Shown in pieces: positions 1,097 through 45,185 of a stretch of DNA of 64,000 nucleotides; the stretch's first letter is position 1, and each line of letters opens with the position of its first letter. The notes under the pieces were generated by a model that saw only the letters and a program-made list of their open reading frames with translations, did no database searches and was not told the origin of the DNA. Source of the stretch: Naegleria gruberi (taxonomy: Eukaryota). The stretch lies in NCBI GenBank assembly GCA_000004985.1, contig GG738862.1; one strand, given 5' to 3'. The translations under genes and the position numbers were made by a program.

Positions 1097-3838
1097 NNNN
1101 NNNNNNNNNNNNNNNNNNNNNNNNNNNNNNNNNNNNNNNNNNNNNNNNNNNNNNNNNNNNNNNNNNNNNNNNNNNNNNNNNNNNNNNNNNNNNNNNNNNN
1201 NNNNNNNNNNNNNNNNNNNNNNNNNNNNNNNNNNNNNNNNNNNNNNNNNNNNNNNNNNNNNNNNNNNNNNNNNNNNNNNNNNNNNNNNNNNNNNNNNNNN
1301 NNNNNNNNNNNNNNNNNNNNNNNNNNNNNNNNNNNNNNNNNNNNNNNNNNNNNNNNNNNNNNNNNNNNNNNNNNNNNNNNNNNNNNNNNNNNNNNNNNNN
1401 NNNNNNNNNNNNNNNNNNNNNNNNNNNNNNNNNNNNNNNNNNNNNNNNNNNNNNNNNNNNNNNNNNNNNNNNNNNNNNNNNNNNNNNNNNNNNNNNNNNN
1501 NNNNNNNNNNNNNNNNNNNNNNNNNNNNNNNNNNNNNNNNNNNNNNNNNNNNNNNNNNNNNNNNNNNNNNNNNNNNNNNNNNNNNNNNNNNNNNNNNNNN
1601 NNNNNNNNNNNNNNNNNNNNNNNNNNNNNNNNNNNNNNNNNNNNNNNNNNNNNNNNNNNNNNNNNNNNNNNNNNNNNNNNNNNNNNNNNNNNNNNNNNNN
1701 NNNNNNNNNNNNNNNNNNNNNNNNNNNNNNNNNNNNNNNNNNNNNNNNNNNNNNNNNNNNNNNNNNNNNNNNNNNNNNNNNNNNNNNNNNNNNNNNNNNN
1801 NNNNNNNNNNNNNNNNNNNNNNNNNNNNNNNNNNNNNNNNNNNNNNNNNNNNNNNNNNNNNNNNNNNNNNNNNNNNNNNNNNNNNNNNNNNNNNNNNNNN
1901 NNNNNNNNNNNNNNNNNNNNNNNNNNNNNNNNNNNNNNNNNNNNNNNNNNNNNNNNNNNNNNNNNNNNNNNNNNNNNNNNNNNNNNNNNNNNNNNNNNNN
2001 NNNNNNNNNNNNNNNNNNNNNNNNNNNNNNNNNNNNNNNNNNNNNNNNNNNNNNNNNNNNNNNNNNNNNNNNNNNNNNNNNNNNNNNNNNNNNNNNNNNN
2101 NNNNNNNNNNNNNNNNNNNNNNNNNNNNNNNNNNNNNNNNNNNNNNNNNNNNNNNNNNNNNNNNNNNNNNNNNNNNNNNNNNNNNNNNNNNNNNNNNNNN
2201 NNNNNNNNNNNNNNNNNNNNNNNNNNNNNNNNNNNNNNNNNNNNNNNNNNNNNNNNNNNNNNNNNNNNNNNNNNNNNNNNNNNNNNNNNNNNNNNNNNNN
2301 NNNNNNNNNNNNNNNNNNNNNNNNNNNNNNNNNNNNNNNNNNNNNNNNNNNNNNNNNNNNNNNNNNNNNNNNNNNNNNNNNNNNNNNNNNNNNNNNNNNN
2401 NNNNNNNNNNNNNNNNNNNNNNNNNNNNNNNNNNNNNNNNNNNNNNNNNNNNNNNNNNNNNNNNNNNNNNNNNNNNNNNNNNNNNNNNNNNNNNNNNNNN
2501 NNNNNNNNNNNNNNNNNNNNNNNNNNNNNNNNNNNNNNNNNNNNNNNNNNNNNNNNNNNNNNNNNNNNNNNNNNNNNNNNNNNNNNNNNNNNNNNNNNNN
2601 NNNNNNNNNNNNNNNNNNNNNNNNNNNNNNNNNNNNNNNNNNNNNNNNNNNNNNNNNNNNNNNNNNNNNNNNNNNNNNNNNNNNNNNNNNNNNNNNNNNN
2701 NNNNNNNNNNNNNNNNNNNNNNNNNNNNNNNNNNNNNNNNNNNNNNNNNNNNNNNNNNNNNNNNNNNNNNNNNNNNNNNNNNNNNNNNNNNNNNNNNNNN
2801 NNNNNNNNNNNNNNNNNNNNNNNNNNNNNNNNNNNNNNNNNNNNNNNNNNNNNNNNNNNNNNNNNNNNNNNNNNNNNNNNNNNNNNNNNNNNNNNNNNNN
2901 NNNNNNNNNNNNNNNNNNNNNNNNNNNNNNNNNNNNNNNNNNNNNNNNNNNNNNNNNNNNNNNNNNNNNNNNNNNNNNNNNNNNNNNNNNNNNNNNNNNN
3001 NNNNNNNNNNNNNNNNNNNNNNNNNNNNNNNNNNNNNNNNNNNNNNNNNNNNNNNNNNNNNNNNNNNNNNNNNNNNNNNNNNNNNNNNNNNNNNNNNNNN
3101 NNNNNNNNNNNNNNNNNNNNNNNNNNNNNNNNNNNNNNNNNNNNNNNNNNNNNNNNNNNNNNNNNNNNNNNNNNNNNNNNNNNNNNNNNNNNNNNNNNNN
3201 NNNNNNNNNNNNNNNNNNNNNNNNNNNNNNNNNNNNNNNNNNNNNNNNNNNNNNNNNNNNNNNNNNNNNNNNNNNNNNNNNNNNNNNNNNNNNNNNNNNN
3301 NNNNNNNNNNNNNNNNNNNNNNNNNNNNNNNNNNNNNNNNNNNNNNNNNNNNNNNNNNNNNNNNNNNNNNNNNNNNNNNNNNNNNNNNNNNNNNNNNNNN
3401 NNNNNNNNNNNNNNNNNNNNNNNNNNNNNNNNNNNNNNNNNNNNNNNNNNNNNNNNNNNNNNNNNNNNNNNNNNNNNNNNNNNNNNNNNNNNNNNNNNNN
3501 NNNNNNNNNNNNNNNNNNNNNNNNNNNNNNNNNNNNNNNNNNNNNNNNNNNNNNNNNNNNNNNNNNNNNNNNNNNNNNNNNNNNNNNNNNNNNNNNNNNN
3601 NNNNNNNNNNNNNNNNNNNNNNNNNNNNNNNNNNNNNNNNNNNNNNNNNNNNNNNNNNNNNNNNNNNNNNNNNNNNNNNNNNNNNNNNNNNNNNNNNNNN
3701 NNNNNNNNNNNNNNNNNNNNNNNNNNNNNNNNNNNNNNNNNNNNNNNNNNNNNNNNNNNNNNNNNNNNNNNNNNNNNNNNNNNNNNNNNNNNNNNNNNNN
3801 NNNNNNNNNNNNNNNNNNNNNNNNNNNNNNNNNNNNNN
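1097..3838. other. Assembly gap (2742 N).
   Basis: Run of n characters. The 1012/976/935-aa ORFs spanning it are poly-X artefacts. Confidence 0.99.
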
Positions 3839-4557: not shown

Positions 4558-6165
4558 ATGACTCTACACAAAAGTACTCTTATTCGAAACAATAGTTTAT
4601 TTCCCGATGATATTTGTTTCGAAATTATAGATTACTTTGATTCTCCATTTATCATCAAAACATGTTCTTTAATTTCACATCAATTTTTACGTGTCATAAA
4701 ATTATATTCGAATCTTGTGGTCAATTTCCGAATGATTACTTCAGAACAAATTAATCAATTTTCAAAAAGTCAATTTTTAGGAAATATAAGAAAGGTTAGA
4801 ATAGCAAGTCATCAAATTGAAGGAGAAATAGGTGTTAAATTATTGGAAACTTTATCAGAAATGAAAAATTTAACCTATTTGAATATTGATTGGAATAAAA
4901 TTTCAGAAAAGTCTAAAATTATTCTTTCTGGAATGAAACACTTGAAAATACTTGCTGCTAGCGGATCTGAAATTGATAAATTTAGTCGATTGGATCAATT
5001 GACTGAACTAAATGTCAATTGGAATCGTTTAAAAGATGAAGATGTAGAATCTATTGGAAATTTGAAAAATTTAACTTTATTAGAATTGAGTGGAAATGAA
5101 ATTTCTAAAAATTCAATGAAATTTATTAGTCAGCTCTCAGAATTAACAAAACTTTCTGTGGGATTGAATTCAATTGAAAATGAAGGAATCAATTCAATAA
5201 TCAATCTTTCAAAATTGACTTGTCTAAACATTATTAATGCAAATATTACTTCAGAAGGTGTCAAATTAATTGGAAAACTATCAAACTTAACCATTCTCGA
5301 TATTAGTGGAAATTTAATTGGTGCTGAAGGAGGTCAATACATTGGAGAATTGAAGAATCTCAAAACACTTGTGGCAAGTGATAATGAACTTGGAGTGCTT
5401 GGAGCAAAGAGCATTGGAGAAATGAATCAATTAACTTCACTTTGTTTGATAGGCAATTCTATTGGAAATGAAGGAGCCAAGTATATTTCTCAATTAAGCC
5501 AATTGACTGATCTTGATTTGGGAAAAAATGAAATAGGTGATGAAGGATTTAAACTACTAGCAAAACTTGAAAAGTTGACAAATTTAGATTTGGTTTCTAA
5601 TAACATTTCTGATTTGAGTTCGACTGGTCAATTGGGTTTATTAAACTGCCTTGATGTCAGAAAAAACAAAATAGAGGACAAGGGCATAAGAAATATTTGT
5701 CAATTGAGTGGATTGCAATCACTTCGTCTTTGCGCAAATCCAATCACTTCAGAAGGAGCCAAAATATTATCAGAAATGGTTCAATTGACCAATTTATCAA
5801 TAAGTGAGACCCATATCGATGACGAAGGAGCCAAATTTATAGCACAATTGACAACTCTGAAATATCTTGATATAAGTACTAAAAGAATAACCGCGAATGG
5901 TGTCAAATTTATTTGCCAATTATCGAAACTAATCTCACTCGATATTAATTGGAATAATATTGGAGATGAGGGAGTGTTATATATTAGCAGAATGCAACAA
6001 TTAGAAACACTAAATGCTGTTTATTGTAATATTGGATTGGAAGGCGCAAAACTCTTGAGTGAAATGGAACAATTGACCGTACTTGATGTGAAAATTAACA
6101 GGATACCTGGAGAGGGAATTCAATTATTAGAAAATATTGCACGATTTAAATCATTAGTTGTGTAA
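4558..6165 (+). CDS. F-box-like N-terminus plus about 18 RNI-type leucine-rich repeats (535 aa).
   Basis: N-terminus FPDDICFEIIDYFDSPFIIKTCSLISHQFLRVI is F-box-like. It is followed by repeated units of about 24-28 aa such as LTxLxLxxNxIGxEGAKxIxxLxxL (GNEGAKYISQL, GDEGFKLLAKL, TSEGAKILSEM). The ATG is at 4558 and the stop is TAA. Confidence 0.75.
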   Translation: MTLHKSTLIRNNSLFPDDICFEIIDYFDSPFIIKTCSLISHQFLRVIKLYSNLVVNFRMITSEQINQFSKSQFLGNIRKVRIASHQIEGEIGVKLLETLSEMKNLTYLNIDWNKISEKSKIILSGMKHLKILAASGSEIDKFSRLDQLTELNVNWNRLKDEDVESIGNLKNLTLLELSGNEISKNSMKFISQLSELTKLSVGLNSIENEGINSIINLSKLTCLNIINANITSEGVKLIGKLSNLTILDISGNLIGAEGGQYIGELKNLKTLVASDNELGVLGAKSIGEMNQLTSLCLIGNSIGNEGAKYISQLSQLTDLDLGKNEIGDEGFKLLAKLEKLTNLDLVSNNISDLSSTGQLGLLNCLDVRKNKIEDKGIRNICQLSGLQSLRLCANPITSEGAKILSEMVQLTNLSISETHIDDEGAKFIAQLTTLKYLDISTKRITANGVKFICQLSKLISLDINWNNIGDEGVLYISRMQQLETLNAVYCNIGLEGAKLLSEMEQLTVLDVKINRIPGEGIQLLENIARFKSLVV

Positions 6166-6278
6166 AATTCAATTAAACAATTCCCTTTCCTGGATCAATG
6201 AAGATCAAGTTTTCCGTCTCTTCCACCCATTTGTTGTTTTGTTTACAACTCAAAGTTCACCGCCTTATTGATTTCATC

Positions 6279-7635
6279 TTAGTAGTGATCAACCACTTTC
6301 ATTTTTTTCCTCAGTTCCTTGATTATTCTATCCGAAATATCATCACCAATATAAAGTTTCCTCAAATTGGGCATGTTCAACAAATATTTAGCTCCTTCAT
6401 CTCCAATTTCACAGTGAATGACTGAGAGTTTTTGCAATTGGAGCATTCCACTAATTGCCTCGAGTCCTTTATTTCCAATTTTATTTCCCGAAAGGTTTAG
6501 TTTGGTTAAATTTTTCATTCCACTTAATGATTTTGCTCCCTCAATTCCAATATTACTGTCATAGATACGGAGATTAGTCAATTGATTTAGTTCACTTATT
6601 ATTTTTGCTCCTGAATCTCCAATTTGATTATCACTAATTAAAAGTCTGGTTAATTGATTCAGTTGACCAATTGGTTTGATATCATCGAAACCTAATTTGT
6701 TTGATTGAATATGGAGACAAGTCAATTGTTTCATATTACAGATCGCCTTAATTCCTTCTGTTCTGACATTAGTCCACTGAATGCAAAGTGTTTTTAAGTG
6801 TCTCAATTGACTAACTGAAATTGCACCTCCATCCCCAATTGGATTCTCACTCATGACGAGTTGAGTTAATGTTTGAATTTCACCAATTGCTTTGGCACCT
6901 TCATCCCCAATATTATTTTTACAAATGAATAGTCTTGTCAGTTGAGGAAGTTCACTAATTTCTTTCGCACCTTGATTGCCTAGTTTATTCTTTCGAATAT
7001 CGAGATAGTTTAGTCGTGTCAGATGTTTAAGTGTTTTTGCTCCTTCCTGTCCAATATTATTTTTACGAACACAAAGATGTGTTAATGAAGAATTCAAATT
7101 ACTCAATGCCTTAATACCTTCATCTCCAATTTTGTTTCCACACATTTCAAGTTTCGTCAATTGTTTCATCTTTCCAATAGATTTCATTCCTTCATCTCCA
7201 ATTTCAGTTCCACCAATATCAAGTTTGATTAATTGTTTCAAATTTGTAAAATATTCAGCACCTTTTGAGGTTATTGGATTGTTAAATACATTCAGTTCAG
7301 TAAATTGAGTCATTTCACTAATCAACTTGGCTTCTCATTTCCAATAAAATTATACGAAATTTCGAGTGTTTTCACTTGTTTCATTTTATGAAGAAGCTTA
7401 AACCAATTTTTCCAATCACGTCATAACAATTATCACAATAATTCGCACAAATAGTTCTGCAAGTGATTCTGTCAAACCAATTCCAATTTTGGCATTTGGC
7501 AATTTCGTCCATGTATAAATCCTTGTGAAGGTGAAATGAAAGTTTAAGTCTGTTTCGAATAACATTATACCACCGTTTTGAAACAAGCGCACATTTCATC
7601 AAAATAAATTCCACATTATTCGCAACAAATTTCAA
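6279..7635 (-). CDS. F-box-like/RNI-type LRR protein, probably 2 exons (N-terminal F-box-like exon 7381-7635, LRR exon 6279 to about 7337). The splice junction is not resolved.
   Basis: The 6279..7325 frame has 13 LRR units (IGDEGMKSIGKMKQL, IGDEGAKAIGEIQTL ...) and stays open upstream to a TGA at 7338-7340 with no ATG. The upstream ORF MKFVANNVEFILMKCALVSKRWYNVIRNRL is F-box-like. A candidate 42-nt intron (gtgaaaac...aaatgag) lies between them but the phase does not fit cleanly. Confidence 0.55.
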
Positions 7636-7803
7636 TATTTCATAACATAAATCATCAATTATTTCTAATAATTTTTTCGTTTTCTTTCCAATAATTTTCG
7701 AATAAAACTACCAACCTCCTTGTCTACTGTTGGCTACAACCAAATCTTCATCACGTTCTTCATTCAAATCACGTTCTTGCATTTTTTTCAATGAAAAACG
7801 ACG

Positions 7804-8325
7804 ATGAAAAAAATACCTCAACAAGACCATCCTCCGGATACGGAAGGGAGTAATTTGCTTGCTGACAGGATTTTTGTGTTAGAGAGAGCAATTGAAACCT
7901 ACCAAAAGGAAAACAATAATCTCCGTGACTATCTTCAACAACTTGTAAATATATGTAATGGTCACCCGTTATTGAATAATAATAATAATAATCCCATCAA
8001 ACCTGTAAATAATAATCTGATCAATACCCAACCATCAGAAAATGAAAATCTATTTATTACTAGAAATCCAGTAAATGTTAGAAATCTACCAACTAGTAGA
8101 AATTTAATTAATGGTGGAAATTTCTTGACTGAGACAGTTCAAATATGCGATAGTAATCCTAAAAATAGAACTGTCAGTTATGCTGATATTACAAGATTAG
8201 CTCCTATTAAAGCTCAGCCATCTATTAAGAAAACAATAGCAAAACAAAAATCAACAACTAATAAGATGAAAAGAAATATGGCAACTAATACTAGACCTAA
8301 CAAACGTAAATCGAGAGTATATTAA
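7804..8325 (+). pseudogene. LINE ORF1 (copy A), terminated prematurely by the MITE insertion at 8313.
   Basis: [47 protein letters not shown]... is identical to the first about 170 aa of the 9275.. ORF. It then reads into the MITE (RVY stop). The uninterrupted sequence resumes at 8735. Confidence 0.6.
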
Positions 8326-8726
8326 TATCCAATATCTATCCCAAACCGCTTTTTTTGGATATGGCTTTTTAAAAAGGGCAATCTGGCTAAATTTTTACGG
8401 GCTTGGCTTTTTGGATAAATCTTGGATTGGATAATATTATTTGAAAATGTGTCGTGTTTGAGCAATTGTCAACAAGGAATGCAGGCAAATCACTCTACGA
8501 ATATTTATTAGATTATTATCAATACTAATTGCAATAAATCAACAATTTTTCGATATAAATTTGGAATAATTTATTTTTGAAATAATTCATTTTTTAGTGG
8601 AAATTTCTTGACTTATTTTTGGATTTAGGTTTTGGCTTTTTGGTTCAATTTGGCTTTTTGCCGATTTTTTATTCACCTATATCCAAAAACTGGTTTGGGA
8701 TGGATTTTGGATATTAATATACTCTC
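8313..8726. mobile_element. 414-bp non-autonomous foldback element (MITE) with perfect 20-bp TIRs GAGAGTATATTAATATCCAA and an 8-bp target-site duplication CGTAAATC (8305-8312 and 8727-8734). This is hAT-like TSD length.
   Basis: Copy B of the same LINE has the uninterrupted site ...aacaaacgtaaatc|taattacaatc... at 9770-9790. Copy A reads cgtaaatc|gagagtatattaatatccaata...ttggatattaatatactctc|cgtaaatc|taattacaatc. The interior is AT-rich with internal symmetry (ccaaaccg...ggtttggg, ggctttttgg repeats). Confidence 0.75.
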
Positions 8727-8927
8727 CGTAAATCTAATTACAATCTTAATCAAATAATTAATGTAATTTGCTACAAAGATGTTACTAACGAATTTGTTGA
8801 ACAAATTACAGACCTACTCGGTGACTCTGTAATCATTAGAGTTAATCGATACTGTAATAATATTATTAATGTAATTTGCCCTGATGAAACCAGTTATAAA
8901 GAGTGTTTCAATCAATTAGTGCAAGGA

Positions 8928-8977
8928 NNNNNNNNNNNNNNNNNNNNNNNNNNNNNNNNNNNNNNNNNNNNNNNNNN
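8928..8977. other. Assembly gap (50 N).
   Basis: Run of n characters. Confidence 0.99.
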
Positions 8978-9254
8978 TTTTAGACAACATGTCAACATGT
9001 TCATCTTTGTAAATTCCTAAACATCCTGGTGAAATTCTACCAATATCCGAAACACCAGTGGCTTCTACAATAAATAAACCAGCTCCACCTACAATTCTAC
9101 TGCCAATATGTTGAACATGCCAGAAATTAGCAAATCCATCAACCGATGAGTACTGACACATTGGGGAGACGACAATACGATTCTTTAAAGTCAATCCTCT
9201 AATTTTGAATGGTTGAAAGAGTGGAGGAACGGATGAGATATCTTGTGCTGACAT
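8978..9254 (-). CDS. N-terminal fragment of an NADH:flavin oxidoreductase of the old-yellow-enzyme family (YqjM-like class). It is truncated by the gap and its ATG abuts the LINE 5' end.
   Basis: [92 protein letters not shown] matches the conserved OYE/YqjM N-terminal beta-alpha barrel start ([26 protein letters not shown]...GGAGLIIVEATAVxPxGRISPxDLGIW.DEH). Confidence 0.6.
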
Positions 9255-9274
9255 TTTTTTAATGGTTGTCGACG

Positions 9275-10247
9275 ATGAAAAAAATACCTCAACAAGACCA
9301 TCCTCCGGATACGGAAGGGAGTAATTTGCTTGCTGACAGGATTTTTGTGTTAGAGAGAGCAATTGAAACCTACCAAAAGGAAAACAATAATCTCCGTGAC
9401 TATCTTCAACAACTTGTAAATATATGTAATGGTCACCCGTTATTGAATAATAATAATAATAATCCCATCAAACCTGTAAATAATAATCTGATCAATACCC
9501 AACCATCAGAAAATGAAAATCTATTTATTACTAGAAATCCAGTAAATGTTAGAAATCTACCAACTAGTAGAAATTTAATTAATGGTGGAAATTTCTTGAC
9601 TGAGACAGTTCAAATATGCGATAGTAATCCTAAAAATAGAACTGTCAGTTATGCTGATATTACAAGATTAGCTCCTATTAAAGCTCAGCCATCTATTAAG
9701 AAAACAATAGCAAAACAAAAATCAACAACTAATAAGATGAAAAGAAATATGGCAACTAATACTAGACCTAACAAACGTAAATCTAATTACAATCTTAATC
9801 AAATAATTAATGTAATTTGCTACAAAGATGTTACTAACGAATTTGTTGAACAAATTACAGACCTACTCGGTGACTCTGTAATCATTAGAGTTAATCGATA
9901 CTGTAATAATATTATTAATGTAATTTGCCCTGATGAAACCAGTTATAAAGAGTGTTTCAATCAATTAGTGCAAGGAAGTCATGGAGGAAAATTCATATTA
10001 GAATGCTTTCCATCTCCAGCAATCTTTAATCCTAAACCTTTAGCACTTTCACATACTACTTCCAGTAAAACTACTCACCTTAAAATGCTAGAAAATATTA
10101 TTAGCAAATGTATATTGGAAGATAATATTTCTGTTGAGGAACTCTACACTAACTATTCTCATAACCAATTTATAATTAGAATATCATTTGAGGATCAAAC
10201 TATTTGCTCTCAAATGGCACAAAATCTTGGTTTAAATCAATATAAAA
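9275..10247 (+). CDS. LINE ORF1 (copy B): N-terminal coiled-coil, poly-N, then an about 150-aa C-terminal domain. It runs into the 50-N gap.
   Basis: [47 protein letters not shown] (heptad-like) ... [63 protein letters not shown]... The architecture resembles L1-type ORF1p (coiled coil plus nucleic-acid-binding domain). This is an inference. Confidence 0.45.
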
Positions 10248-10297
10248 NNNNNNNNNNNNNNNNNNNNNNNNNNNNNNNNNNNNNNNNNNNNNNNNNN
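10248..10297. other. Assembly gap (50 N).
   Basis: Run of n characters. Confidence 0.99.
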
Positions 10298-10571
10298 TGG
10301 CCGTAATAACATTTTAAGGTAATAGAAACTTGAGTATGATGAGTAATACTATGAATATATATTGTATTTCCTTTAGAATCTAGTAATTTGGTTACCTTGG
10401 TAAGTCAAGTGTTGTATATTTTCGCTTTATTAGTTGTAAATGACTTTGAGAATAAATATATATATATATTTCAAATATCATCATTTAACTACTTTCAGCT
10501 TTTATTGTTAAAAACATAAATAAATTTCCGGTGTTTATTACAACTAGGTAAAACTGAAACGGTACTACTAA

Positions 10572-13500
10572 GATAACGTAAATGGTTTATATAAGCACGC
10601 AAGCCATAAATCAGTTACTCCTGAATTGAAATCCATGTGTTTAACACATGGAATTCACTTTATGAGTTTAACTGAAACTCACTTAAATACCCCAGAACTA
10701 GAAATAGAAGTCAAAAACTCTGGATCAGGGTACCTATTATTTAACTCATTAATGAATACAAGAAAAGGTTGCAAAGGTACTGCAGCTATGCACTTTCTAA
10801 ATAATTATAGAAAGCGCAATATTACAAATAATAATCTCGTACCTGGAACATTACAATGGACACGATTCGAAAGTCGTGGAATTCCAATTAACATCTTCAC
10901 AATTTATCTTAGTGGAAGATCTAATGATTATGACAATGAGGAAGAAGCTCTTAATAGCTTTATTAATGCTGCCCTCACAATTAAAGATGAACATATTATT
11001 TTAAGTGGTGATATTAATATTGATACAAGAAATCCCACTAGTAAAAGAGAAAAAGACTGGCTATGGATACTTAATCTACTCAGACTAACCGAATTACAAA
11101 CATCCAATAATACTTGGATAAGAAGAGTTCAATCTAATATTTTTGAATCGAAACCTGATCATGTCTTTGTGTCAAAAGACATAAGAATAGTTAAAGAAGT
11201 GCTCATGCCTCCATTAACCACTAATGATCACATTCCTTTCTATATAGATCTCGAATTTAAATCTAACTTAACCTAGAGACCTTACTTTAGTAAGAGTAAG
11301 AGAAAGAAAATATATGAAGAAATTAATAAGTCTCCTATAGATAATTTCAAAGAGTTAAATCAAGCTATCTTGACTCAAATTAACAAATATGGCTCCAAAA
11401 CTGATAGATTAGGTGTTGGTCGAATCTCAACAGCCTATAAAGAAGAAATTCAAGATTTGGAAGAAGAAATTCTTCACAAATTAAATAATGAAACTATTTC
11501 TCAATCAGAAATATCTGAATTACAAACATTACTGAAAGAAACTCATATTAAAAATGGAAAACATATTAAGGAAAAATTGATAGAAGAATTCAATGATAGA
11601 ACTTCATCTAAAATGTATCAATTTGATAGAATGGTTCATTCCAAAGAAATTAAATGGAAAGATATTAATTTCGAAGAAGAGGAAATTTTAGAATACTTTA
11701 CAAATAAGTTTACCTCGACTAATCAACTTCCAACATTCATTCCAAGTAGATCAACTATTAAAGAAGGACCAAATTGGACCAACTCGATCCATATAGAAGA
11801 ATTGGAAAAAGCTTTAAAACGTATGAAATCAAATACCCCTGGTCCTGATCTAATTTCTCTGGATATTATTAAGCATCTCACAGAAAAAAATCAGAAAATT
11901 TTATTGAACGAATTTAATAATTGCCTAAGAATAGGTGATATCTCTGAAGATTGGAAGCAAGGATGGGTGAAACTCATTCCTAAAAGAGATATCACTTCTC
12001 TCAGTGACATTCGTCCAATCACTATTTTACCTACATTTTATAGAATTTTATTTAATATTATAGCCTTTCGACTTAGATCTTGGGCATCATCTCATATAAA
12101 TATGAGACAACAAGCATTTATTACAGACAGAAACACTTTAAATCATGGTGTCCTTCTATCATCATTAGCTATGAAAACTAAGAAAAGAACCTTCATTCTT
12201 GTTAACCTAGATATTGAAGGAGCTTATGATGCTGTAGAATTGTCAGTGATTAAAATGGCACTAGACCATTGTAAATTTCCTAACGAACTCACTCAATTTA
12301 TTATTAATGCCTATAGCAACCATGAATTGAGCCTAGAAATTGATAATCATCTATCCACAAAATTTACAAAAACTCGAGGAATCCCACAAGGATGCCCATT
12401 GGCTCCTCTTATATACGATTGTATCACACAATTAATTATTGATAAAGCAATAGATAAATGGAAAATACCAATCAAACCAAACAAACTATGTGCTAATGAT
12501 ATTGCACTCTGTTGCTTTGCAGATGATATGAATGTTGTCTGTGACAGATATGCCAAATACAATGACAGGCTAGATAACATACATGACTGGCTAGGTCAAC
12601 TACTTTTTAAACTAAATGCAAAGAAATCAGTTGCAACTCTACTACCTAAAACAAGCAAAGTATCTCCCAAAATTAAGGGTACACCTATTCCTAAACAAAA
12701 AAACCTTAGGATACTTGGACATTATCCATGGGATGATATTCTGGTTCGACAAGATATCCAAAACAAAATTGAAAAATTTACCAAATCTTTGAAATTTCTC
12801 CCATTATTCAAAATTGAACCAGATAACCTTAAACAAATTATTCACGCTAAAGCTATTAGCTTATTTACACACCTTTCTAAAATTAACTTAATTCCTCTGA
12901 AAAAGGCACAACAAATTGATATAGCCATTAGAGGAGCAATTAGAAGAAAACTATATATGGACAGGAAAACACCAACCAGCTTATTCCACTTACCATTAGA
13001 AAAAGGTGGATTAGGACTACCATCTATTGTAGAATTTTCTGAAAGAATGAACCTAAGAACCATGACCTTAATTGCTAACAGTAACAATTTACTCGTCAAG
13101 AAAGCTTTCAAACATGGTATCAAGCACTGTGAGGAAACGAAAGACAATATTTATTCGAAATGGCTACTAGTACTAAAAGAATACAACCTCACACTTAAGA
13201 AAAATGAAATGAAATTCAAGTTGAAAAAAATCAAAACAGGAAATAATTTTGATATTCACACTGACGGATCAAGACTCGAATCAAAGACTGGAATGGGGAT
13301 TAATATCTATGATTGCTCCAATATGAACACTCCAGTTAGATCTTTATCCCTCCATATTAATGATCAATATTCAAATAATGTAGCTGAAATATGCTCTATT
13401 ATTACAGCAGCTAAAGTTATCCCAAGAGACTCCAAGATTAAAATCCATACTGATAGTAATGTGGCAATTTAAGTTCTCAAAGAACGATATAAGGGAAACT

Positions 13501-14222
13501 TTCTACCACTAAAAAAAGCCTTCTTTAAAACCATTAAGGATAGAAAACTTGAATATGAATTCAAGAAAGTTGAAGCTCATAAGGATAAGGAAAATATCAA
13601 AGTTGATTTATTGGCAAAGAATGCAACTCTGAAACCTAAAATCTTTGATATCCGTAAACTACTCTTTAATCAATATATCCTCACAAAGAACGATATTATA
13701 ATCTTTGACTATAAGAGGTTAACTACCTCACAACATTTAAGGCTAATGCTTGACAAGATAGAGAGTCACCCCAATCACATACCTAACCTAGATTGGAACT
13801 CTATCAACGTCAGCTACCTTAAATCCCATTTGTCTCCTAAATCTAAATATTATATTTGGAGAAACTCTTCAAATGCCCACATCAATTTTGGTGAGGGTAA
13901 AAGTTTCTGTCATGATTGTAACACAGAATCTGACCTTAATCACTATATTCATGAATGCCCTGCTCTGGATAGTGCCAGATACTTTTGCTTGTCAAAAATA
14001 TCTGATATTCTTGATCAGAGAGAGTGTAAACTCACTCATATTCAATTCAGACCAGAAAAGCATCACCATGTACTCTTCTTCCACCATTCTGGAACCACAT
14101 TCTTCGAAGATGGATACGTACAACAATACCCAGACATTGCAGAGAAATGGCCTGAGATCCAGGGAGCCATTTCTAACTTTGTCGGCCGCTCCTATAGATA
14201 TTATTATATTGACTCAATGTAA
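10572..14222 (+). pseudogene. LINE ORF2 of about 1200 codons in a single reading frame, interrupted by only two in-frame stops (TAG 11274-11276, TAA 13470-13472). It contains an APE-type endonuclease (10572-11276), reverse transcriptase (11370 to about 13150), RNase H (about 13200-13620) and a C-terminal CX2C...HX4C motif.
   Basis: EN: DNVNGLYK...LTETHL...SGDINID...TNDH. RT: FRLRSWASSHINMRQQAFITDRNTLNHG...IALCCFADDMNVVCD (YXDD/FADD box). RNH: IHTDGSRLE...DSKIKIHTDSNVAI / VLKERYKGNF...EAHKDKENIKVDLLAKNA. C-terminus: CHDCNTESDLNHYIHECPALD. ORFs 10626, 11370 and 13611 all start at positions that are 0 mod 3. Confidence 0.7.
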
Positions 14223-14460
14223 ATTTACAAATTCAAAGAGAATCTGAATAGATTCGTTATTATTGCAATAAAAGATTTTTTTCAATGAAAAATTACACAA
14301 TAAATCAATTCTTCATTACTGTCAATATTGAACAAAACCCCAATTTATATAAATTTAATCTTGATCTCAATGATGTTTACAATGAACAACCTTGTTCCAA
14401 TTCCATTTCAAAATTGAAAAAAAACAGAAAACATAAACTTTAAAAAAAAAACTCTTAAAA

Positions 14461-14946
14461 ATGTCCCTCTGCAAAGACAATTGTGGTTTCTACGGCAATG
14501 ACAATTACGAAGGTTATTGTTCAACATGCTATCGAAAGAGAAATGCAAAACCAGGTGATGATCAATCATCGTTATCGGTAATTAATTCTACTCCAGTTTA
14601 TACTCCACCAATGCCATCTTTCTCCTCCGATGAGGAATTGGCTGTTTTTATCAAATTGATCAGTAATATGCCAGAGATAACTTCTGGAAAGATTGATAAT
14701 GTGTTGCAGACTTTGAATGTTTATTTCACTGAGAAGCAGGCAAGAGAATTGTTGACTGCTATTGGAAAGGTCACCTTGGATGGAAATAATTTCATTTATC
14801 ATCATGCTGTGTATTGTAGAGTGGTGGATCGTTATAATTTACAAGAATGTTTTGGAGCTGAAGGATATTATTATGTTGCACGAGGAAAGAAACCTCAAGA
14901 TGATTACAAAGTATGGGATCATCAACATTCATTCTTGAAACATTAA
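14461..14946 (+). CDS. A20-type zinc-finger protein (161 aa).
   Basis: N-terminus MSLCKDNCGFYGNDNYEGYCSTCYRK matches the A20 zinc-finger pattern CxxGCGFYGxxxxxGxCSxCY. The rest is unrecognised. Confidence 0.6.
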   Translation: MSLCKDNCGFYGNDNYEGYCSTCYRKRNAKPGDDQSSLSVINSTPVYTPPMPSFSSDEELAVFIKLISNMPEITSGKIDNVLQTLNVYFTEKQARELLTAIGKVTLDGNNFIYHHAVYCRVVDRYNLQECFGAEGYYYVARGKKPQDDYKVWDHQHSFLKH

Positions 14947-24440: not shown

Positions 24441-27377
24441 TTACATTCTATTCATTTCTTGAAAAATTGAAAATTCACAAATGAAAGAATGGTCAACTTG
24501 CAATGAAGGTGAGGCAAATTGCAGAGCCATTTCATTTTGTTTGACAGCTACTTGTACAAACTCTTTTGTAGATCTCAATGTAGGACTGCAATATTCCAGT
24601 GCAAGGCCATTATATTTGACAAACTCTATCATGACTTGCTCATTATCTTTGTAATGATCTGGTAATAAATCTAAATACTTGATTTCATTTGTGATTTTTA
24701 CAGATTCCAATAGAAATTCAGAGTGATTTCGTAAATAGTTCTGTGAAACAAATGGCAATAATCCTTTCACATCAAGCTTGAGAATATTTTCATCGGTGAA
24801 TGCTTGTGAAGCCAAATTATTGTAATTTCTGTATCCGCATTGGATGGCTATTTTGATAATTTCCTTTTCATACTGAAGATGTGATGGTATCAAATTGAAT
24901 AGTTTAGGATAATTAGAAAGCAATAATTGTATCATTTCAATTGATTCCTTGAGATTTTCATCCAAATGTCTGAAATTATTTGGATCCTTCAAGATGGCAC
25001 GTTTCATAAGTTCAGCATCTGACCTCTTCTCTTTTGGAAATTGAGAAACATTGACTCCCTTATCAATACATGTAGCTAGAAATTCATCTTGACATTTTAA
25101 ATCATTACAAGCAATCTGAAAGAAATCTTGTCCATACTCTACAGCAGATTCAATAAAATCCCTATCTTCAGAAAACAGTTCAATAAGGAATGGCATTGGA
25201 ATCTTGTATCTATCCACTGAGAGAATAGAAAGAAGAATCTTACGTATGGTTCCTTTTTGCTGATCATCCAAATATCTTTCTTTTAGTTGTTGTAAAGCTT
25301 CTTCGTCTAGAGAAGTGCTACCAGATAGAATGTCAACAACTTCCTCAATCATAACCATGTCTACCAGAACAGTTTCGAAAAATTCACGTAAAATAGCTTT
25401 GGACTTTCTCTTTTCGAAAGGAAGTTTAAAGAATAAATCTCTATCAAGAGAAAGTGCCTGACTGGCTAATTCATCATAGAATGGTAGAGAAGGATCAAAC
25501 CATGCTGTTTGTTCAATGATAGAGGGGTTGTTAGTGATAACATCAATAAGGAACTGAGAGTTTGTTTTTAAATCTTTGTGAATTTGTCCAAAGTTTCTGT
25601 ACGGGTTGAGGGTTACTGATTTGAGAGCTAGATCTCTATTTCCCTTTAGTCTTGCACTCGCATAGCTAAACAGTTCGGGATCTTTCTCAATAATTTCATT
25701 CATAATTTCCAAATCATCTCTTATTGATGGTGGAGCGAATTCAATGACTTGCAGATTATTTTGAAGAGCAATCTTGAAAAATTCCAAATCATTCATATAA
25801 TCTCTCAGATACTGTAGACAAGCTCCATTAACTGATACAAACTTCAATAAGTATTCTCTGTTCCACTTCATTTCCTCTGGTATGAATATGATTGTTTCTT
25901 CATTGTACTTGACAAGATTTAAATAAAAATCCAAATCTCGATGTCTATTCTCACCTCTTGAGAATCTATTCCTAATTTCAGGTTTTATCCATCCCAAATT
26001 TTGTTTGACCACTTGTTCTAATTTAGGATCTTGATTCAATTCTTCTGAAATGGTTGTAATTGCCCAAACGTTTTGACGTAAAGCTTGGAGTACAACTTCT
26101 GTATCTTTTCTATATTCAGGATACACATACTGAATGGCTATTCCATTTCTCTTTAAGACTTCCAATACAAAATGCTTATGTTGATAGGGAGATAGTTCCA
26201 TACAGAAAGGATGAATGCTGGCAGCTTCCAAATGTTTGTGCCACAATGTTGAATTGTTTGGATTTTTAAATGCTTGTGTGTAGGCTTGTGAAATGGCAGC
26301 CATTTTGTGCATGAAACTAACTCTTTCTTTTCTATTTGGATTTTTCAATGTTTCAACAATCTTTCGAATAAAATCAGTAGGAGTATTTCCAACAAGCTGC
26401 TCAATAGTTACACCCAACGAATACAAATCTGTATCAATACCGTATGGAAGTGGTAAATTCTTCCTTTCCTCAGGTTTAATTTTCTTCAAATTCTCAATAT
26501 ATTCAAATATAATTGGATCCATATAACTAAGAGTACCTCCATCGTTCACCTCTTTGATTGATTTTTGACTAAATGATAATCCAAAATCTCCAACAACCAC
26601 CTGAATACTTTCCAAATCAAAATCAATACTTCTGACCAATAAATTTCCTGGCTTGATATCTCTATGACAAATATTCTTTTTGGAAATATATGAAAGTGCA
26701 TCACAAACCTGAGCTACAATTTGAATAAGCATTGAATCAGTGAGCTTTCGTTTATAGCTAACCAGAGATCCCTTCTCCATAAATTCCATTTCAAGACAAA
26801 CCATTCCCTCAATAATGTGAAAATCATCAACTTTTACAATATGTTCATGATCTAATTGAATTGAATTTGCCAATTCCTGAAATCCAATAACAGTAGAGGA
26901 ATTTGTAATACATTTAATGGCCTTCCTATTCTCACCAATCAACACTGTAAAAACAGATCCAAATCCTCCTGAACCAACACAATCGTCCACTTTCAATCCT
27001 TTCGAATAGAAATATTCTTTCAACCTTCTCTCCGTTGTATTTTCATTTAACATTTTCTTCAATTGTTCCTCACGATTATTAAATTTATCATTTTCATTCT
27101 TCATTGTGGTTTGTTCTCCATCCCGATCATCATTAATATTCATATTAATATTATTTAAATTATTTAAATTATTTAAATTATTATTATTGGGTAAAACATC
27201 AACTAAATTCAAAGCCTTCTTTTTCTTAAGTTGTCGAAAGGAAATTGTTTTTTGATTAGTTTCATCATCATCACGCATGACTTGAACAGTTTCATCATCA
27301 CTAAAATCATCGGAAGAGTCTAATAAAATTTTGATAGATTCTTCTCTCTTCCTTTTGTGTGCTGCGTCATTGAGCAT
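24441..27377 (-). CDS. Ser/Thr protein kinase (N-terminal) fused to a long array of about 30-aa DUF4116-like repeats (978 aa).
   Basis: Kinase motifs GSGGFGSV, AIKCI, HRDIKPGNLL, DFGLS, and an APE-like segment. C-terminal repeats have the consensus YNGLALEYCSPTLRSTKEFVQVAVKQNEMALQFASPSLQ, that is (A/G)LxFASxxLRxDxE(F/I)VLxAVxxNGxAL. Confidence 0.75.
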   Translation of the reverse strand: MLNDAAHKRKREESIKILLDSSDDFSDDETVQVMRDDDETNQKTISFRQLKKKKALNLVDVLPNNNNLNNLNNLNNINMNINDDRDGEQTTMKNENDKFNNREEQLKKMLNENTTERRLKEYFYSKGLKVDDCVGSGGFGSVFTVLIGENRKAIKCITNSSTVIGFQELANSIQLDHEHIVKVDDFHIIEGMVCLEMEFMEKGSLVSYKRKLTDSMLIQIVAQVCDALSYISKKNICHRDIKPGNLLVRSIDFDLESIQVVVGDFGLSFSQKSIKEVNDGGTLSYMDPIIFEYIENLKKIKPEERKNLPLPYGIDTDLYSLGVTIEQLVGNTPTDFIRKIVETLKNPNRKERVSFMHKMAAISQAYTQAFKNPNNSTLWHKHLEAASIHPFCMELSPYQHKHFVLEVLKRNGIAIQYVYPEYRKDTEVVLQALRQNVWAITTISEELNQDPKLEQVVKQNLGWIKPEIRNRFSRGENRHRDLDFYLNLVKYNEETIIFIPEEMKWNREYLLKFVSVNGACLQYLRDYMNDLEFFKIALQNNLQVIEFAPPSIRDDLEIMNEIIEKDPELFSYASARLKGNRDLALKSVTLNPYRNFGQIHKDLKTNSQFLIDVITNNPSIIEQTAWFDPSLPFYDELASQALSLDRDLFFKLPFEKRKSKAILREFFETVLVDMVMIEEVVDILSGSTSLDEEALQQLKERYLDDQQKGTIRKILLSILSVDRYKIPMPFLIELFSEDRDFIESAVEYGQDFFQIACNDLKCQDEFLATCIDKGVNVSQFPKEKRSDAELMKRAILKDPNNFRHLDENLKESIEMIQLLLSNYPKLFNLIPSHLQYEKEIIKIAIQCGYRNYNNLASQAFTDENILKLDVKGLLPFVSQNYLRNHSEFLLESVKITNEIKYLDLLPDHYKDNEQVMIEFVKYNGLALEYCSPTLRSTKEFVQVAVKQNEMALQFASPSLQVDHSFICEFSIFQEMNRM

Positions 27378-30460: not shown

Positions 30461-30694
30461 TTTTTTGTTTTTTTTTACTAAGAGAAAAAATAATTTTATC
30501 GTAAACGTGCCTTAATGTGTTGTTTATTCCTCCACTTGCTGCTTACTTATCTAACATTCAAAATCGTATTGGAAGAAATAGTGTTTTGCAAAACCAGGCA
30601 GAAATAACAACGTAACTACACCTTTCTTATTCGAACAAGATTTGGTCAACCTTCAACCAATATTTTCTTAACATTGATCAGATTACAAAAAAAA

Positions 30695-31744
30695 ATGGCA
30701 ACACAATTAATGGATTTAACTGTGATCTTGTTACTGGATCAAACTATTAAATCACACCTCTTACCATTAAAAATGCGAGATTTTCATTCGAAACAACATA
30801 ATTTGAGAGAAACACTTCATAATTTAATAGATGAAGCAAATCCATATTTTATTCCGTTGTGGAAATTAGATGTGATCCGAGAGAAATCTTTCATTCTGGA
30901 TGTTCTGGAAGATTCGTTTAGATTTGTTTCGTATACTGCCAAATATATTTTTGCTTCATTGCAAAGAAATGTGTTGGATAATTTAGTGAGAATTCTGCCG
31001 TTTCATTTAAAGGACAAATCATTGGAAAATGCTGCAAAATCTTTCAATAGATTATTCGTTCATTGTTCGAATCTGAAGCCATTATTCAAAACCATTAACA
31101 TTGAATTATTCGAAAGTCAAGTATTGAATCAAAATAGGATTATTCTCAATCAAATTTACGAAATGCTGCTCAATGACAGAAAATGTGCAAAACGATTACT
31201 TGACTTTCATCCAACAGATTTCGAATTTCTGAGTGAGAAACTCAAAGCAGATAAATCCTTCGTATTAGAAACTATTCCAAAATACTCCAATTGCATTAAA
31301 TATGCCAGTGAAGAACTAAGGAATGACAAACAAGTAATTTTACGCGTGTTGGTTGGTAAAAATGGTCTTTTACTAGAATTTGCAAGTGAAGCATTGAGAA
31401 ATGATAGAGAAATAGTTTTGAGAGCAATTGAGGGTGAAAAAATTGCCAATTCCCATTTGCGAATTCCTTCATGTCATGATATGCATATGAATAATGCACT
31501 GGCTTTGCAATTTGCTAGCCCTCAATTGAGAAATGATAGAGAAATAGTTAGTAAGGCAATTATTCGAAATGCTTTGGCAATTCAATTTGCTAGTGAGGAG
31601 TTGAGAAATGATCGAACACTTGTTTCGTATGCTGTACAAAGGAATGCATCAGCTTTGGATTTTGTGAGTGAGGAATTGAGGAAGGATGAGAAAATTATTG
31701 AATTGGCTGCCAAGGCAAGGTTTGCTGATTTAGATATGGATTAA
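30695..31744 (+). CDS. Stand-alone DUF4116-like repeat protein (about 350 aa). It is a paralog of the C-terminal half of the kinase at 24441-27377.
   Basis: LLLEFASEALRNDREIVLRAIEGE, ALQFASPQLRNDREIVSKAIIRNALAIQFASEELRNDRTLVSYAVQRNASALDFVSEELRKDEKII. Confidence 0.65.
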   Translation: MATQLMDLTVILLLDQTIKSHLLPLKMRDFHSKQHNLRETLHNLIDEANPYFIPLWKLDVIREKSFILDVLEDSFRFVSYTAKYIFASLQRNVLDNLVRILPFHLKDKSLENAAKSFNRLFVHCSNLKPLFKTINIELFESQVLNQNRIILNQIYEMLLNDRKCAKRLLDFHPTDFEFLSEKLKADKSFVLETIPKYSNCIKYASEELRNDKQVILRVLVGKNGLLLEFASEALRNDREIVLRAIEGEKIANSHLRIPSCHDMHMNNALALQFASPQLRNDREIVSKAIIRNALAIQFASEELRNDRTLVSYAVQRNASALDFVSEELRKDEKIIELAAKARFADLDMD

Positions 31745-39601: not shown

Positions 39602-40797
39602 ATGGGAAACCAGCAACCAAGGCATGGTAGTGTTTCTTCATCATCGGAATCATTAACAACTAATAGAACAAGTAACAATTTTCTTCCCAATGAAATTTAT
39701 TTAGAAATTATGAGCTATATGGACAGTGGGCAAATAATTAAAAATTGTTCTTTAATTTCCAAGCAATGGTGGACCATGATCAAACAACACTGTTCTTTTA
39801 GAATTATTCTCCGATATAAACTTGATATGATTCATGTAAAATCAATGAGCAAGTGTAGATTCTTGGAAAATATTAAAAGCATTGAAATTAATGCAACATA
39901 TGAGAATCATACTGAAAGATTGAAAATATATCAAGAACTATTAAGAGTTATGGGAAGGATAAAGAATTTGCATTTCTTTCCATTAATTCATTGATGATCA
40001 ATCCAAAACAAGCTGAATTGATATTGAATTTGAAAGGATTACAATATCTGAATATTGGAAGGAACAATATTGATGATGCTACTATTTGCAAAATTAGCAA
40101 AATGGATAAATTGACATCTCTAAATATTGAATCAATACATATAGGAATTGAAGGATTTAAGGCAGTATGTGGGATGAAACAATTGACAGCATTATATACC
40201 TGTTTCAATGTCGAAGTTCATACAAACGATGTAGTCAAACTAATTTCTTTATCATTACCTAATTTAACACTTTTGGATATTCAAGCAAGTTATCTAAAGG
40301 AACAAGAAGCAAAATATTTGAGTCAACTGGTAAATCTAAAATCACTGAATGTTAGATTTAACTTTCTTGGAGACGAAGGAATGCAATATATTAGTAAATT
40401 GGAAAATTTAACATTTCTGAATATTGCTCATAATATTATAACACCTGAAGGAGCAAGACAATTTAAGGAGCTGAAACACCTGACGAATCTCAATTTAAAA
40501 GGATGTGGACTTGGTGAAAAGGGATTTGAGGCACTCAAAATTAATGAACTCTGTAATTTGACAATATTAAATATTAGTGCTAATAACATTGGTTTAAAGC
40601 AAGTTCAATTCATTTGTAAGATGACTCAATTGATATCACTCGATACCAGTGAAAATCTCATTGACATAGATGGTTCCCAAATAATTAGTGAAAGGCTGTT
40701 AAATTTAAGAGAACTTGTAATGGATGAGATTGCTTTTGATGAGGAAGCAATCTCTAATATGCCTCGATTGATCTCTGTGGAATTGTTTCAAAGATGA
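39602..40797 (+). pseudogene. F-box-like/LRR gene with a frameshift at about 39990 and no splice signals there. It is either a pseudogene or a sequencing error.
   Basis: Frame 1 gives MGNQQPRHG...LPNEIYLEIMSYMD...CSLISKQWWTMIK (F-box-like) and ends in ...LHFFPLIH*. Frame 2 continues immediately with MINPKQAELILNLKGLQYLNIGRNNI... LRR units. The two frames overlap by 4 nt. Confidence 0.5.
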
Positions 40798-43339: not shown

Positions 43340-43697
43340 GAAGGGAAATATTGGATAAGAAAAGAATCAAAGTGTTGCTGAGAAGTTGAGAATGAGAATT
43401 GTAAAGCGTGAAGAATCATGTGATGAAGGTTCAAGTGAAGTATTTCGTGGATTCTCAATCAATATATCTCTAGAGAGAAGATGCTGATTTCAAATAGTTT
43501 GGATAATGGTGCATTATAATGATGAAGATAATGAGAAAATTGGATATTCGAATATCTGGATAAGAAAGGTATTGGATAAGAGTGCATTAGTCAACTTGTA
43601 ATATTGAGCAGGTTGAAACTAGTTGAAGATATGATAATTTACAATTTGTAATATTTTGTAATTGTTGAAATTAATTAAATAAAAATTATTAAAAAAA

Positions 43698-45185
43698 ATG
43701 ACTGACAGTTCGTGGCAGATTATTCCTGATGAAATTTTGATCAATATTTTCGAATATTTACATTCGATTGATTATGTCCGTATTGCCCACGTTTCTTCTC
43801 ACTGGAGAAAACTTGCAAAATTATCCTATTGTCATTCGGTGTGGAATTTACAACAATATCACAAGGATTTGAGTAGAACTACTCCATCACTCTGTCAACC
43901 TAAACTAAATAATGATGTTTTATGGTTGTTTTCGAAAGTTTATTTATCAATTGATCCCAATAATGTGAAATTTATTAATGAATTTATCAAGAATTTGTTA
44001 ACTTCTAAAAAATTGAAACATTTAATTGTGGAAAATCCAAGTTTTTTGGAAAGTTCGAATATTTTCAAACAGTTTGATAATGGAGCGACAAGTTGTGAGA
44101 GTCTTACTGCTTTGGAGATTGTTTCTAGTTATGCTATGATTGACTGTATGGATAAATTTCCAAATTTGAAAGTTCTCAAGTTTAGAAATTGTTATGGAGT
44201 AATTGGAATTTCATTGATGAAACATATTCATCAAAGATTGGAGAGTTGTGCTATTGAAAATTCATATTTTGATTCAAAAACGTTTTTCAATGCGATTGAG
44301 AATGGAGTTTCGAATTTAAAAAAGATTAGTTTAGAGTTTATCAAAAAAGAAGATTTAACTGCATTGAGCTTGAGCTCGTTTCCCTATTTGAGAAAATTGA
44401 AAATATCAAAAATTAACCTTCAAATAGCTCACTTATTATGGAATTCGTTTAGTCATCAATTGAAAAAGTTCAATATTACTCTGGCTGATGATGAATATCA
44501 AGTTTTTGATTTTCAAAAAAGAAATGCTCCTCATTTGAAATCATTGCAACTTTGCAACTCAACTTTGGATGAATGTGATATAGAAATGCCTCAATTAGAG
44601 CATTTGGAATTTTATTATGTATACGAATTGCCAGTAATCATTTCCAAATTCGTTGGATTGAAAACTCTAATTATTAGAAACTGTTACGAAATGGATTTTT
44701 CCAATATTGGTCAACTCTTGCAATTACGACACTTGGAAGCAAGTAATGTTGGCGATTTGGAAGCTGTTAGACATATTTCGAAATTGGAAAATATCATTCA
44801 TTTAACAATTTCAGGAATTAATGATGCTGGAAGTGAAATTATTTCTAATGGAAATCTTAGAAACCTGAAATGCTTGGAAATTGATTTTGAAAATCCTGAG
44901 AAATCAGCTTACTATCTCTCACACTCCAATTTAACAAACTTGAGAATTATTCGATTCACTCTCAATGAAGAGGCAAGCAAAATATTCAGTCGAACGAGCT
45001 TGGAATTGAGGACTGTTATTCTAAACGAAATATGTGAAGTTTCACACCTTATCAAGAACTTGCAATGTGACCAAATTGTTGTGTGGACATTAAAACGCCT
45101 CCCCAACTTGGACCAAAATTCCAAATTGGCTATGAAATGCAATAAGAGATTAATATTCACCAATGATTACAAACCATTCCTTTAA
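43698..45185 (+). CDS. F-box protein with C-terminal LRR-like repeats (495 aa).
   Basis: Canonical F-box IIPDEILINIFEYLHSIDYVRIAHVSSHWRKLAKL, followed by degenerate L-rich repeats (LKVLKFRNCYGV..., LKTLIIRNCYEM...). Confidence 0.7.
   Translation: MTDSSWQIIPDEILINIFEYLHSIDYVRIAHVSSHWRKLAKLSYCHSVWNLQQYHKDLSRTTPSLCQPKLNNDVLWLFSKVYLSIDPNNVKFINEFIKNLLTSKKLKHLIVENPSFLESSNIFKQFDNGATSCESLTALEIVSSYAMIDCMDKFPNLKVLKFRNCYGVIGISLMKHIHQRLESCAIENSYFDSKTFFNAIENGVSNLKKISLEFIKKEDLTALSLSSFPYLRKLKISKINLQIAHLLWNSFSHQLKKFNITLADDEYQVFDFQKRNAPHLKSLQLCNSTLDECDIEMPQLEHLEFYYVYELPVIISKFVGLKTLIIRNCYEMDFSNIGQLLQLRHLEASNVGDLEAVRHISKLENIIHLTISGINDAGSEIISNGNLRNLKCLEIDFENPEKSAYYLSHSNLTNLRIIRFTLNEEASKIFSRTSLELRTVILNEICEVSHLIKNLQCDQIVVWTLKRLPNLDQNSKLAMKCNKRLIFTNDYKPFL

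Follow-up and report, generated by a model that had tools for sequence, protein, structure and literature searches.

A probable non-autonomous terminal inverted repeat transposon in a LINE ORF1 of Naegleria gruberi, with an empty site in a second LINE copy

The interrupted LINE and its second copy

The window analyzed here is a 64-kb stretch of the Naegleria gruberi genome, which was found to have a G+C content of 33.6% and to contain three runs of N (1097-3838, 8928-8977, and 10248-10297). Genes with LRR_6-type leucine-rich repeats are located at 4558-7325, 39991-40797, and 43698-45185, one of them with a Pfam F-box, and genes with DUF4116 repeats at 24441-27377 and 30674-31744. Both represent expanded families in this region. 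A LINE preceded by leucine-rich-repeat genes has its ORF1 interrupted by an insertion of 414 bp (copy A), and a second LINE copy with an uninterrupted ORF1 (copy B) is found within the same stretch. The features of the LINE copies and their surroundings are the following:

7781-7798, no strand: 5' copy of the LINE target-site duplication (TSD), ATTTTTTTCAATGAAAAA, 18 nt directly before copy A
7799-8312, plus strand: 5' portion of LINE copy A, with the ORF1 ATG at 7804 and the part of ORF1 that precedes the insertion
8735-8927, plus strand: LINE copy A, ORF1 resuming after the insertion and running to the contig end; matches copy B
8928-8977, no strand: 50-N assembly gap between the contigs of copies A and B
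8978-9254, minus strand: start of a gene for a flavin oxidoreductase of the Old Yellow Enzyme type (92 N-terminal codons), in the 5' flank of copy B
9270-10247, plus strand: LINE copy B, 5' end and uninterrupted ORF1, on a 1,270-bp contig (8978-10247)
10248-10297, no strand: 50-N assembly gap between the contig of copy B and that of the LINE ORF2
10298-14281, plus strand: rest of the LINE, with APE-type endonuclease, reverse transcriptase, and RNase H (ORF2) and two in-frame stops
14275-14292, no strand: 3' copy of the LINE TSD, its first 7 nt (ATTTTTT) common to the LINE 3' tail

The interrupted sequence is, from its coding content and its junctions, a bona fide non-LTR retrotransposon (LINE). 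Pfam analysis identified Exo_endo_phos_2 at 10626-11276 and RVT_1 with RNase_H at 11370-13472, and the whole of ORF2 (10575-14213) is colinear with its counterpart in a related LINE (1,213 aa; Logan contig L003), at 52% identity. The APE-type endonuclease and reverse transcriptase are accompanied by TSDs of 17-18 nt at two fully bounded insertions and by a 5'-truncated copy. The latter was recovered by a protein search with ORF2, which returned Naegleria LINEs and two Logan contigs, L002 and L003. Contig L002 carries an independent 5'-truncated LINE copy (90.6% identical) which ends in ...AATAAAAGATTTTTT and has its own 17-nt TSD, ATTTTTTAGTGCTAAAT (L002 3659-3675 and 5239-5255). The 414-bp element is absent from both of these contigs.

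No homologue of ORF1 was detected at E ≤ 1e-5 in a search of 5.8 billion proteins. The ORF1 of copy B aligns from residue 2 with the ORF1 of the LINE on L003 (25% identity, E = 9e-18), and this homology indicates that the element inserted into real coding sequence, truncating the ORF1 of copy A to 173 codons. The ORF2 reading frame is broken by a TAG at 11274 and a TAA at 13470, being otherwise colinear with its intact relative. With these two stops the LINE copy is unable to make a full-length ORF2 protein, though its 5' end is identical to that of another copy. No open frame joins ORF1 to ORF2 across 10298-10575, and ~200 C-terminal codons of ORF1 are missing relative to L003; the true extent of the sequence missing at the 50-N gap (10248-10297) is therefore probably greater than the gap length suggests.

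At three independent insertions of this LINE (7781-7798/14275-14292, 9252-9269, and that on L002) the target starts with ATTTTTT and is preceded by C. The LINE has no poly(A) after its terminal sequence, and 7 nt are common to the target and the retrotransposon, which would suggest that the target is chosen by annealing of the U-rich RNA tail. Reverse-complemented, the target CATTTTTT gives AAAAAATG, the context usual for start codons in N. gruberi, and copies A and B both lie 11-12 nt upstream of a minus-strand ATG.

Global alignment of the two copies showed positions 7799-8312 of copy A to be identical to 9270-9783 of copy B (514 bp, 100%), and 8727-8927 to be identical to 9776-9976 (201 bp, 100%). 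With no differences in 715 bp, their divergence is calculated to be roughly below 0.4% at 95% confidence. The lower figure of 98.9% returned by BLAST upstream of the element arose where the alignment ran into the similar, but non-homologous, CATTTTTTT target sites. The LINE proper is 100% identical, and in the global alignment all differences fall in the outermost 5' positions, which belong to the flank.

The 18-nt TSD preceding copy A recurs directly after the LINE 3' end, of which the window contains only one, and copy A and this 3' end thus form one insertion extending from 7799 to ~14281. For copy B, the predicted LINE TSD, ATTTTTTTAATGGTTGT, was found to have neither a partner nor a matching 3' junction in the window; the sequence predicted for that junction (the LINE 3' end followed by the predicted TSD) is ...AATAAAAGATTTTTTTAATGGTTGT. 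The 5' flanks of the copies are unrelated, with leucine-rich-repeat genes before copy A and the Old Yellow Enzyme gene before copy B. From these flanks and the TSD pairing it follows that copies A and B are separate insertions, and copy B is a true paralogue, neither an allele nor a tandem duplicate of copy A.

This bears on a caveat of the initial annotation, that the copies might be alleles collapsed in tandem. The assembler would in that case have stacked two haplotypes of one LINE, and the insertion would be a presence/absence polymorphism. Such an arrangement would be in keeping with the position of copy B immediately behind copy A, on a contig of only 1,270 bp that has a 50-N gap on either side, and with the 100% identity of the LINE sequence common to both, while the two accessions of the gene 3' of the LINE (14461-14946) hint at redundant assembly nearby. 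However, the two copies have nothing in common upstream of the LINE 5' end, and the TSD predicted for copy B lacks the partner in the window which that of copy A has; the caveat is contradicted by these flanks and is considered very unlikely to apply. In the simplest reading, the copy B contig probably derives from a LINE elsewhere in the genome and was placed in the scaffold through the shared repeat. The contig at 8978-10247 is not part of the surrounding LINE insertion, and a scaffolding error in the reference is probable.

The gene directly 3' of the LINE encodes an A20 zinc-finger protein and is represented on two contigs, under the N. gruberi accessions EFC45517 and EFC36337; the sequence of EFC36337 is the same as that of the protein from 14461-14946. 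For six genes of the window, at 24-62 kb, there is a single N. gruberi accession each. A redundant or haplotype scaffold may exist beside the LINE. With respect to the Old Yellow Enzyme fragment, no identical N. gruberi protein was found in the database; its matches reach at most 74% identity and carry bacterial names where named. The gene may have escaped annotation or be truncated, or its ancestry may be bacterial.

The inserted element and its empty site

The features of the insertion itself, and of the corresponding site in copy B, are as follows:

8305-8312, no strand: left copy of the TSD of the element, CGTAAATC, 8 bp, directly adjoining the element
8313-8726, no strand: putative non-autonomous terminal inverted repeat (TIR) DNA transposon, MITE-like, 414 bp, after codon ~170 of LINE ORF1
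8313-8332, plus strand: 5' TIR, GAGAGTATATTAATATCCAA, with an imperfect extension to ~8347 and, more weakly, to 8381
8327-8432, no strand: left subterminal zone, in which TTGGAT(A)/TATCCAA and TTGGCTTTTT motifs recur as candidate transposase-binding sites
8597-8613, plus strand: 17-nt segment GTGGAAATTTCTTGACT, identical to LINE ORF1 at 8114-8130 and 9585-9601
8619-8712, no strand: right subterminal zone with the same motifs as the left
8707-8726, minus strand: 3' TIR, perfect reverse complement of 8313-8332
8727-8734, no strand: right copy of the TSD, CGTAAATC, 8 bp, directly adjoining the element
9776-9783, no strand: empty site, a single CGTAAATC in LINE copy B, apparently never occupied

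The limits of the element were read from the sequence and checked by script. Its ends are inverted repeats which match at 20/20 positions and then extend imperfectly, with 33/35 matches to ~35 nt and ~75% identity over ~69 nt. An element of 414 bp with perfect 20-bp TIRs had been proposed in the initial annotation, with coordinates and reverse complementarity in agreement with those found here. Its description as a "foldback" element is overstated, as the interior of ~300 bp is unique and non-palindromic and the inverted repeats are confined to the ends. As single-stranded DNA the element is predicted to fold through these ends with an energy of -54.2 kcal/mol (z = -6.7). When the 20-mer was searched with up to 3 mismatches, only the two ends of the element matched in the 64-kb window, where shuffled sequence gave an expectation of 0.02, and a generic scan of the window for TIRs with TSDs returned no second element of comparable quality.

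In size and termini the element (414 bp, with a perfect 20-bp TIR) falls within the range of MITEs (< ~800 bp). It is also without coding capacity, as is expected of a MITE, with stop codons in 6/6 frames. No Pfam match at E ≤ 1 was obtained with nine peptides of 27-48 aa drawn from its six-frame translation. A search of Rfam with 8200-8850 returned no credible family, the sole match being far below the gathering score.

The 8-mer CGTAAATC has only three occurrences on the plus strand of the 64-kb window, namely the two TSD copies and the empty site. The sequence of copy A is that of copy B with 414 bp and one extra CGTAAATC added, so that the duplication expected of a MITE is present twice at the filled site and once at the empty one. 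The flanking 8-bp TSD had been called previously and its two copies match. A filled/empty-site pair had also been recognized; this is upheld by the single 8-mer in copy B and the 100% identity of the LINE flanks, though the empty site, placed at 9775-9790, has a narrower exact span than was given. The comparison of filled with empty site is valid although the copies are not adjacent in the genome. The earlier claim that the insertion followed the split of the LINE copies is borne out. Taken together, the perfect TIRs, the perfect TSD, and the absence of LINE substitutions over 715 bp indicate a recent event. Both LINE copies are young, and the insertion of the element is younger still.

It could be argued that copy B has lost the element through precise excision, or through deletion between the 8-mers, and was not always unoccupied. 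Recombination between 8-bp direct repeats would indeed restore exactly the sequence of copy B. However, copy B is a different LINE insertion in a different flank, and an independent gain and loss at the same base would be needed. The excision of cut-and-paste transposons normally leaves a footprint, which also speaks against this, and the related LINE ORF1 of L003 aligns straight across the site without a 414-bp insert. Excision is therefore considered extremely improbable. A chance inverted repeat, or a chimera of assembly or cloning, deserves equally little credence as an explanation for the 414 bp. In its favor, the sequence comes from a draft assembly with gaps, in which the contig stops 201 bp past the element. 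However, the combination of 20-bp TIRs and an 8-bp TSD, both perfect, with an empty site that fits to the base is the signature of transposition, and the chance expectation is negligible (0.02 for the 20-mer), this being the sole such element in 64 kb. The insertion is very probably a short, non-coding, non-autonomous class II TIR DNA transposon in a LINE ORF1 of N. gruberi.

Short motifs were found to be repeated near both ends of the element. TATCCAA/TTGGATA is present in 6 copies, compared with 0.21 expected, and AAAAGCCA/TGGCTTTT in 4 copies, compared with 0.05 expected. This enrichment of ~30- to 80-fold lies in the subterminal ~100 bp at each end and involves both orientations. Repeated short subterminal motifs are the usual layout of transposase-binding sites in hAT, Mutator, P, and CACTA elements, and those described here are considered candidate transposase-binding sites. 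Elsewhere in the window, five TTGGATA(A/T)-type motifs are clustered at 43340-43590, upstream of the F-box gene at 43698. This TTGGATAAG-like cluster was considered as a degenerate copy of the element and rejected, having no TIR, no TSD, and no wider similarity.

The 17-nt segment GTGGAAATTTCTTGACT within the element matches LINE ORF1 exactly at a point ~200 bp upstream of the insertion site. A blastn-short search against the whole window gave E = 0.001 for this match, with the next best at 0.08; under a looser null of Markov shuffles, matches of at least 17 nt were obtained in 7/200 trials. Abortive gap repair may have left the segment as filler DNA, or the match may be due to chance.

Superfamily assignment

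The termini of hAT elements follow 5'-YARNG, with 5'-CAGAG in hobo/Hermes, and their targets tend toward nTnnnnAn, which is a preference and not a rule. The terminus of the element, 5'-GAGAG, matches this consensus at A2, G3, and G5, but has G in place of C/T at position 1. Its TSD, CGTAAATC, departs from the preferred target with G at position 2 and T at position 7, which for a single site is weak evidence. The resemblance to hAT-type MITEs and other non-autonomous hAT elements (Ds-like derivatives of Ac and relatives of hobo/Hermes) extends to the 8-bp TSD, the TIRs of ~20 bp, the subterminal motifs in two orientations, the small non-coding body, and the xAGAG terminus. The element differs from them in its first base and in its TSD. 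Elements of the hAT superfamily are mobilized by a transposase with a DDE/RNase H-like core and a hAT dimerization domain; none is shown here for Naegleria, and no transposase was detected among the scanned long ORFs of the window.

Mutator-like elements (MULEs) have TSDs of typically 9-11 bp and occasionally of 8 bp. Along with their MITEs they share with the element a 5'-GAGA terminus, an extended imperfect TIR, and an AT-rich target, but its TSD measures 8 bp and not 9-11 bp, and its perfect TIR is just 20 bp. Both Mutator-like and Zisupton/KDZ elements can give 8-bp TSDs. That the same insertion was made by a Mutator-like element, or by a member of another group with 8-bp TSDs (P, Zisupton/KDZ, or Novosib), and not by a hAT element, is the most serious of the alternatives, although a minority one. 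It draws on the likeness of 5'-GAGAG to the 5'-GAGA... of maize Mu, on an imperfect inverted repeat whose reach of ~69 nt exceeds typical hAT TIRs, and on the 8-bp TSDs of Zisupton, which hAT elements also usually make (PMC12730594). It is weakened in its Mutator-like form by the typical TSD length of MULEs. Nor is it favored by what is recorded from a related species, as the only DNA transposon classes reported for Naegleria lovaniensis are CMC-EnSpm and PiggyBac, so that no superfamily has prior support (PMC6125883).

Merlin elements produce TSDs of 8-9 bp and have TIRs with a conserved terminal 5'-GG (PMC8101967). The element agrees with these IS1016-like transposons in its TSD but starts with 5'-GA. 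Within Discoba, Merlin was recorded only in Euglena and two kinetoplastids in the same survey, Naegleria being unmentioned (PMC8101967). The P superfamily is characterized by 8-bp TSDs and a THAP-domain transposase, and of these the length of the TSD fits.

A hAT-like transposase is the best guess, at somewhat below even chances, and membership is not claimed. A Mutator-like origin is appreciably less probable, a P element is unlikely, and Merlin is very unlikely, the rest falling to other or undefined superfamilies. The initial annotation had listed hAT-, P-, or Merlin-like transposases. Its first choice is also ranked first here, and P is retained at a low probability, but the list was too wide in its inclusion of Merlin, the 5'-GG of which is absent, and too narrow in its omission of the Mutator-like and Zisupton/KDZ groups, which also give 8 bp. 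As a whole, the annotation is correct to the base in what it observed, with an interpretation that is essentially correct and over-specific.

Mobilization and significance

No transposase gene and no autonomous partner were detected by Pfam analysis of the scanned long ORFs of the window, which suggests that the element would have been mobilized in trans. In the mechanism proposed, a DDE-type transposase encoded elsewhere in the genome would bind the 20-bp termini and the subterminal TATCCAA and AAAAGCCA motifs and would excise the element from a donor site. The element would then be joined to a target cut with an 8-bp stagger, and gap filling of this stagger would duplicate CGTAAATC. The LINE insertion at another locus, copy B, would never have received the element and would have kept the intact target.

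One copy of the element is present in the 64-kb window. It may belong to a multi-copy MITE family, as the name used in the initial annotation implies, and it may be currently active, for which a live transposase, likewise implied there, would be needed. A search for the TIR 20-mer in viral contigs gave 0 matches. Among metagenome contigs the 20-mer was matched once, in L001, in an unrelated coding region near a BRCT-like sequence, and this match was dismissed as due to chance. The literature searched on DNA transposons, MITEs, or hAT elements in Naegleria was found to hold no description of this or any other family with 8-bp TSDs. A more speculative proposal, which is considered rather unlikely, is that the element marks a still-active, uncharacterized cut-and-paste system in N. 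gruberi NEG-M and that the GTGGAAATTTCTTGACT segment is a trace of how the element arose, through abortive gap repair inside a copy of the LINE.

TIR transposons inserted into other repeats, and proven by a paralogous empty site, are textbook material. The present case is similar to nested-transposon dating in plant and animal genomes, where a young repeat copy likewise serves as the empty-site control for a younger insertion. Nothing differs in principle, except that here one copy has probably been mis-scaffolded beside the other. The insertion is clean and recent but represents ordinary biology, and its value is mainly local. Naegleria genomes are poor in repeats and TEs. That of N. gruberi is reported to have 5.1% repeats (PMC6125883), of which only a small fraction can be assigned to known TE classes (PMC6125883; PMC12344493), and in one survey TEs were annotated in 0.28% of the genome (bioRxiv 10.64898/2026.06.24.734286).

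The analysis also flags a likely scaffolding error in the reference, in which a 1.27-kb contig of another LINE locus lies inside this LINE, as well as a LINE family with the specific target CATTTTTT. To our knowledge, there is no established endogenous transposon tool for Naegleria. The exact termini and the TSD length of the element can be used to mine the genome for its family and for the transposase. If that transposase is intact, an insertional tool native to this organism, for which few genetic tools exist, could be developed from it.
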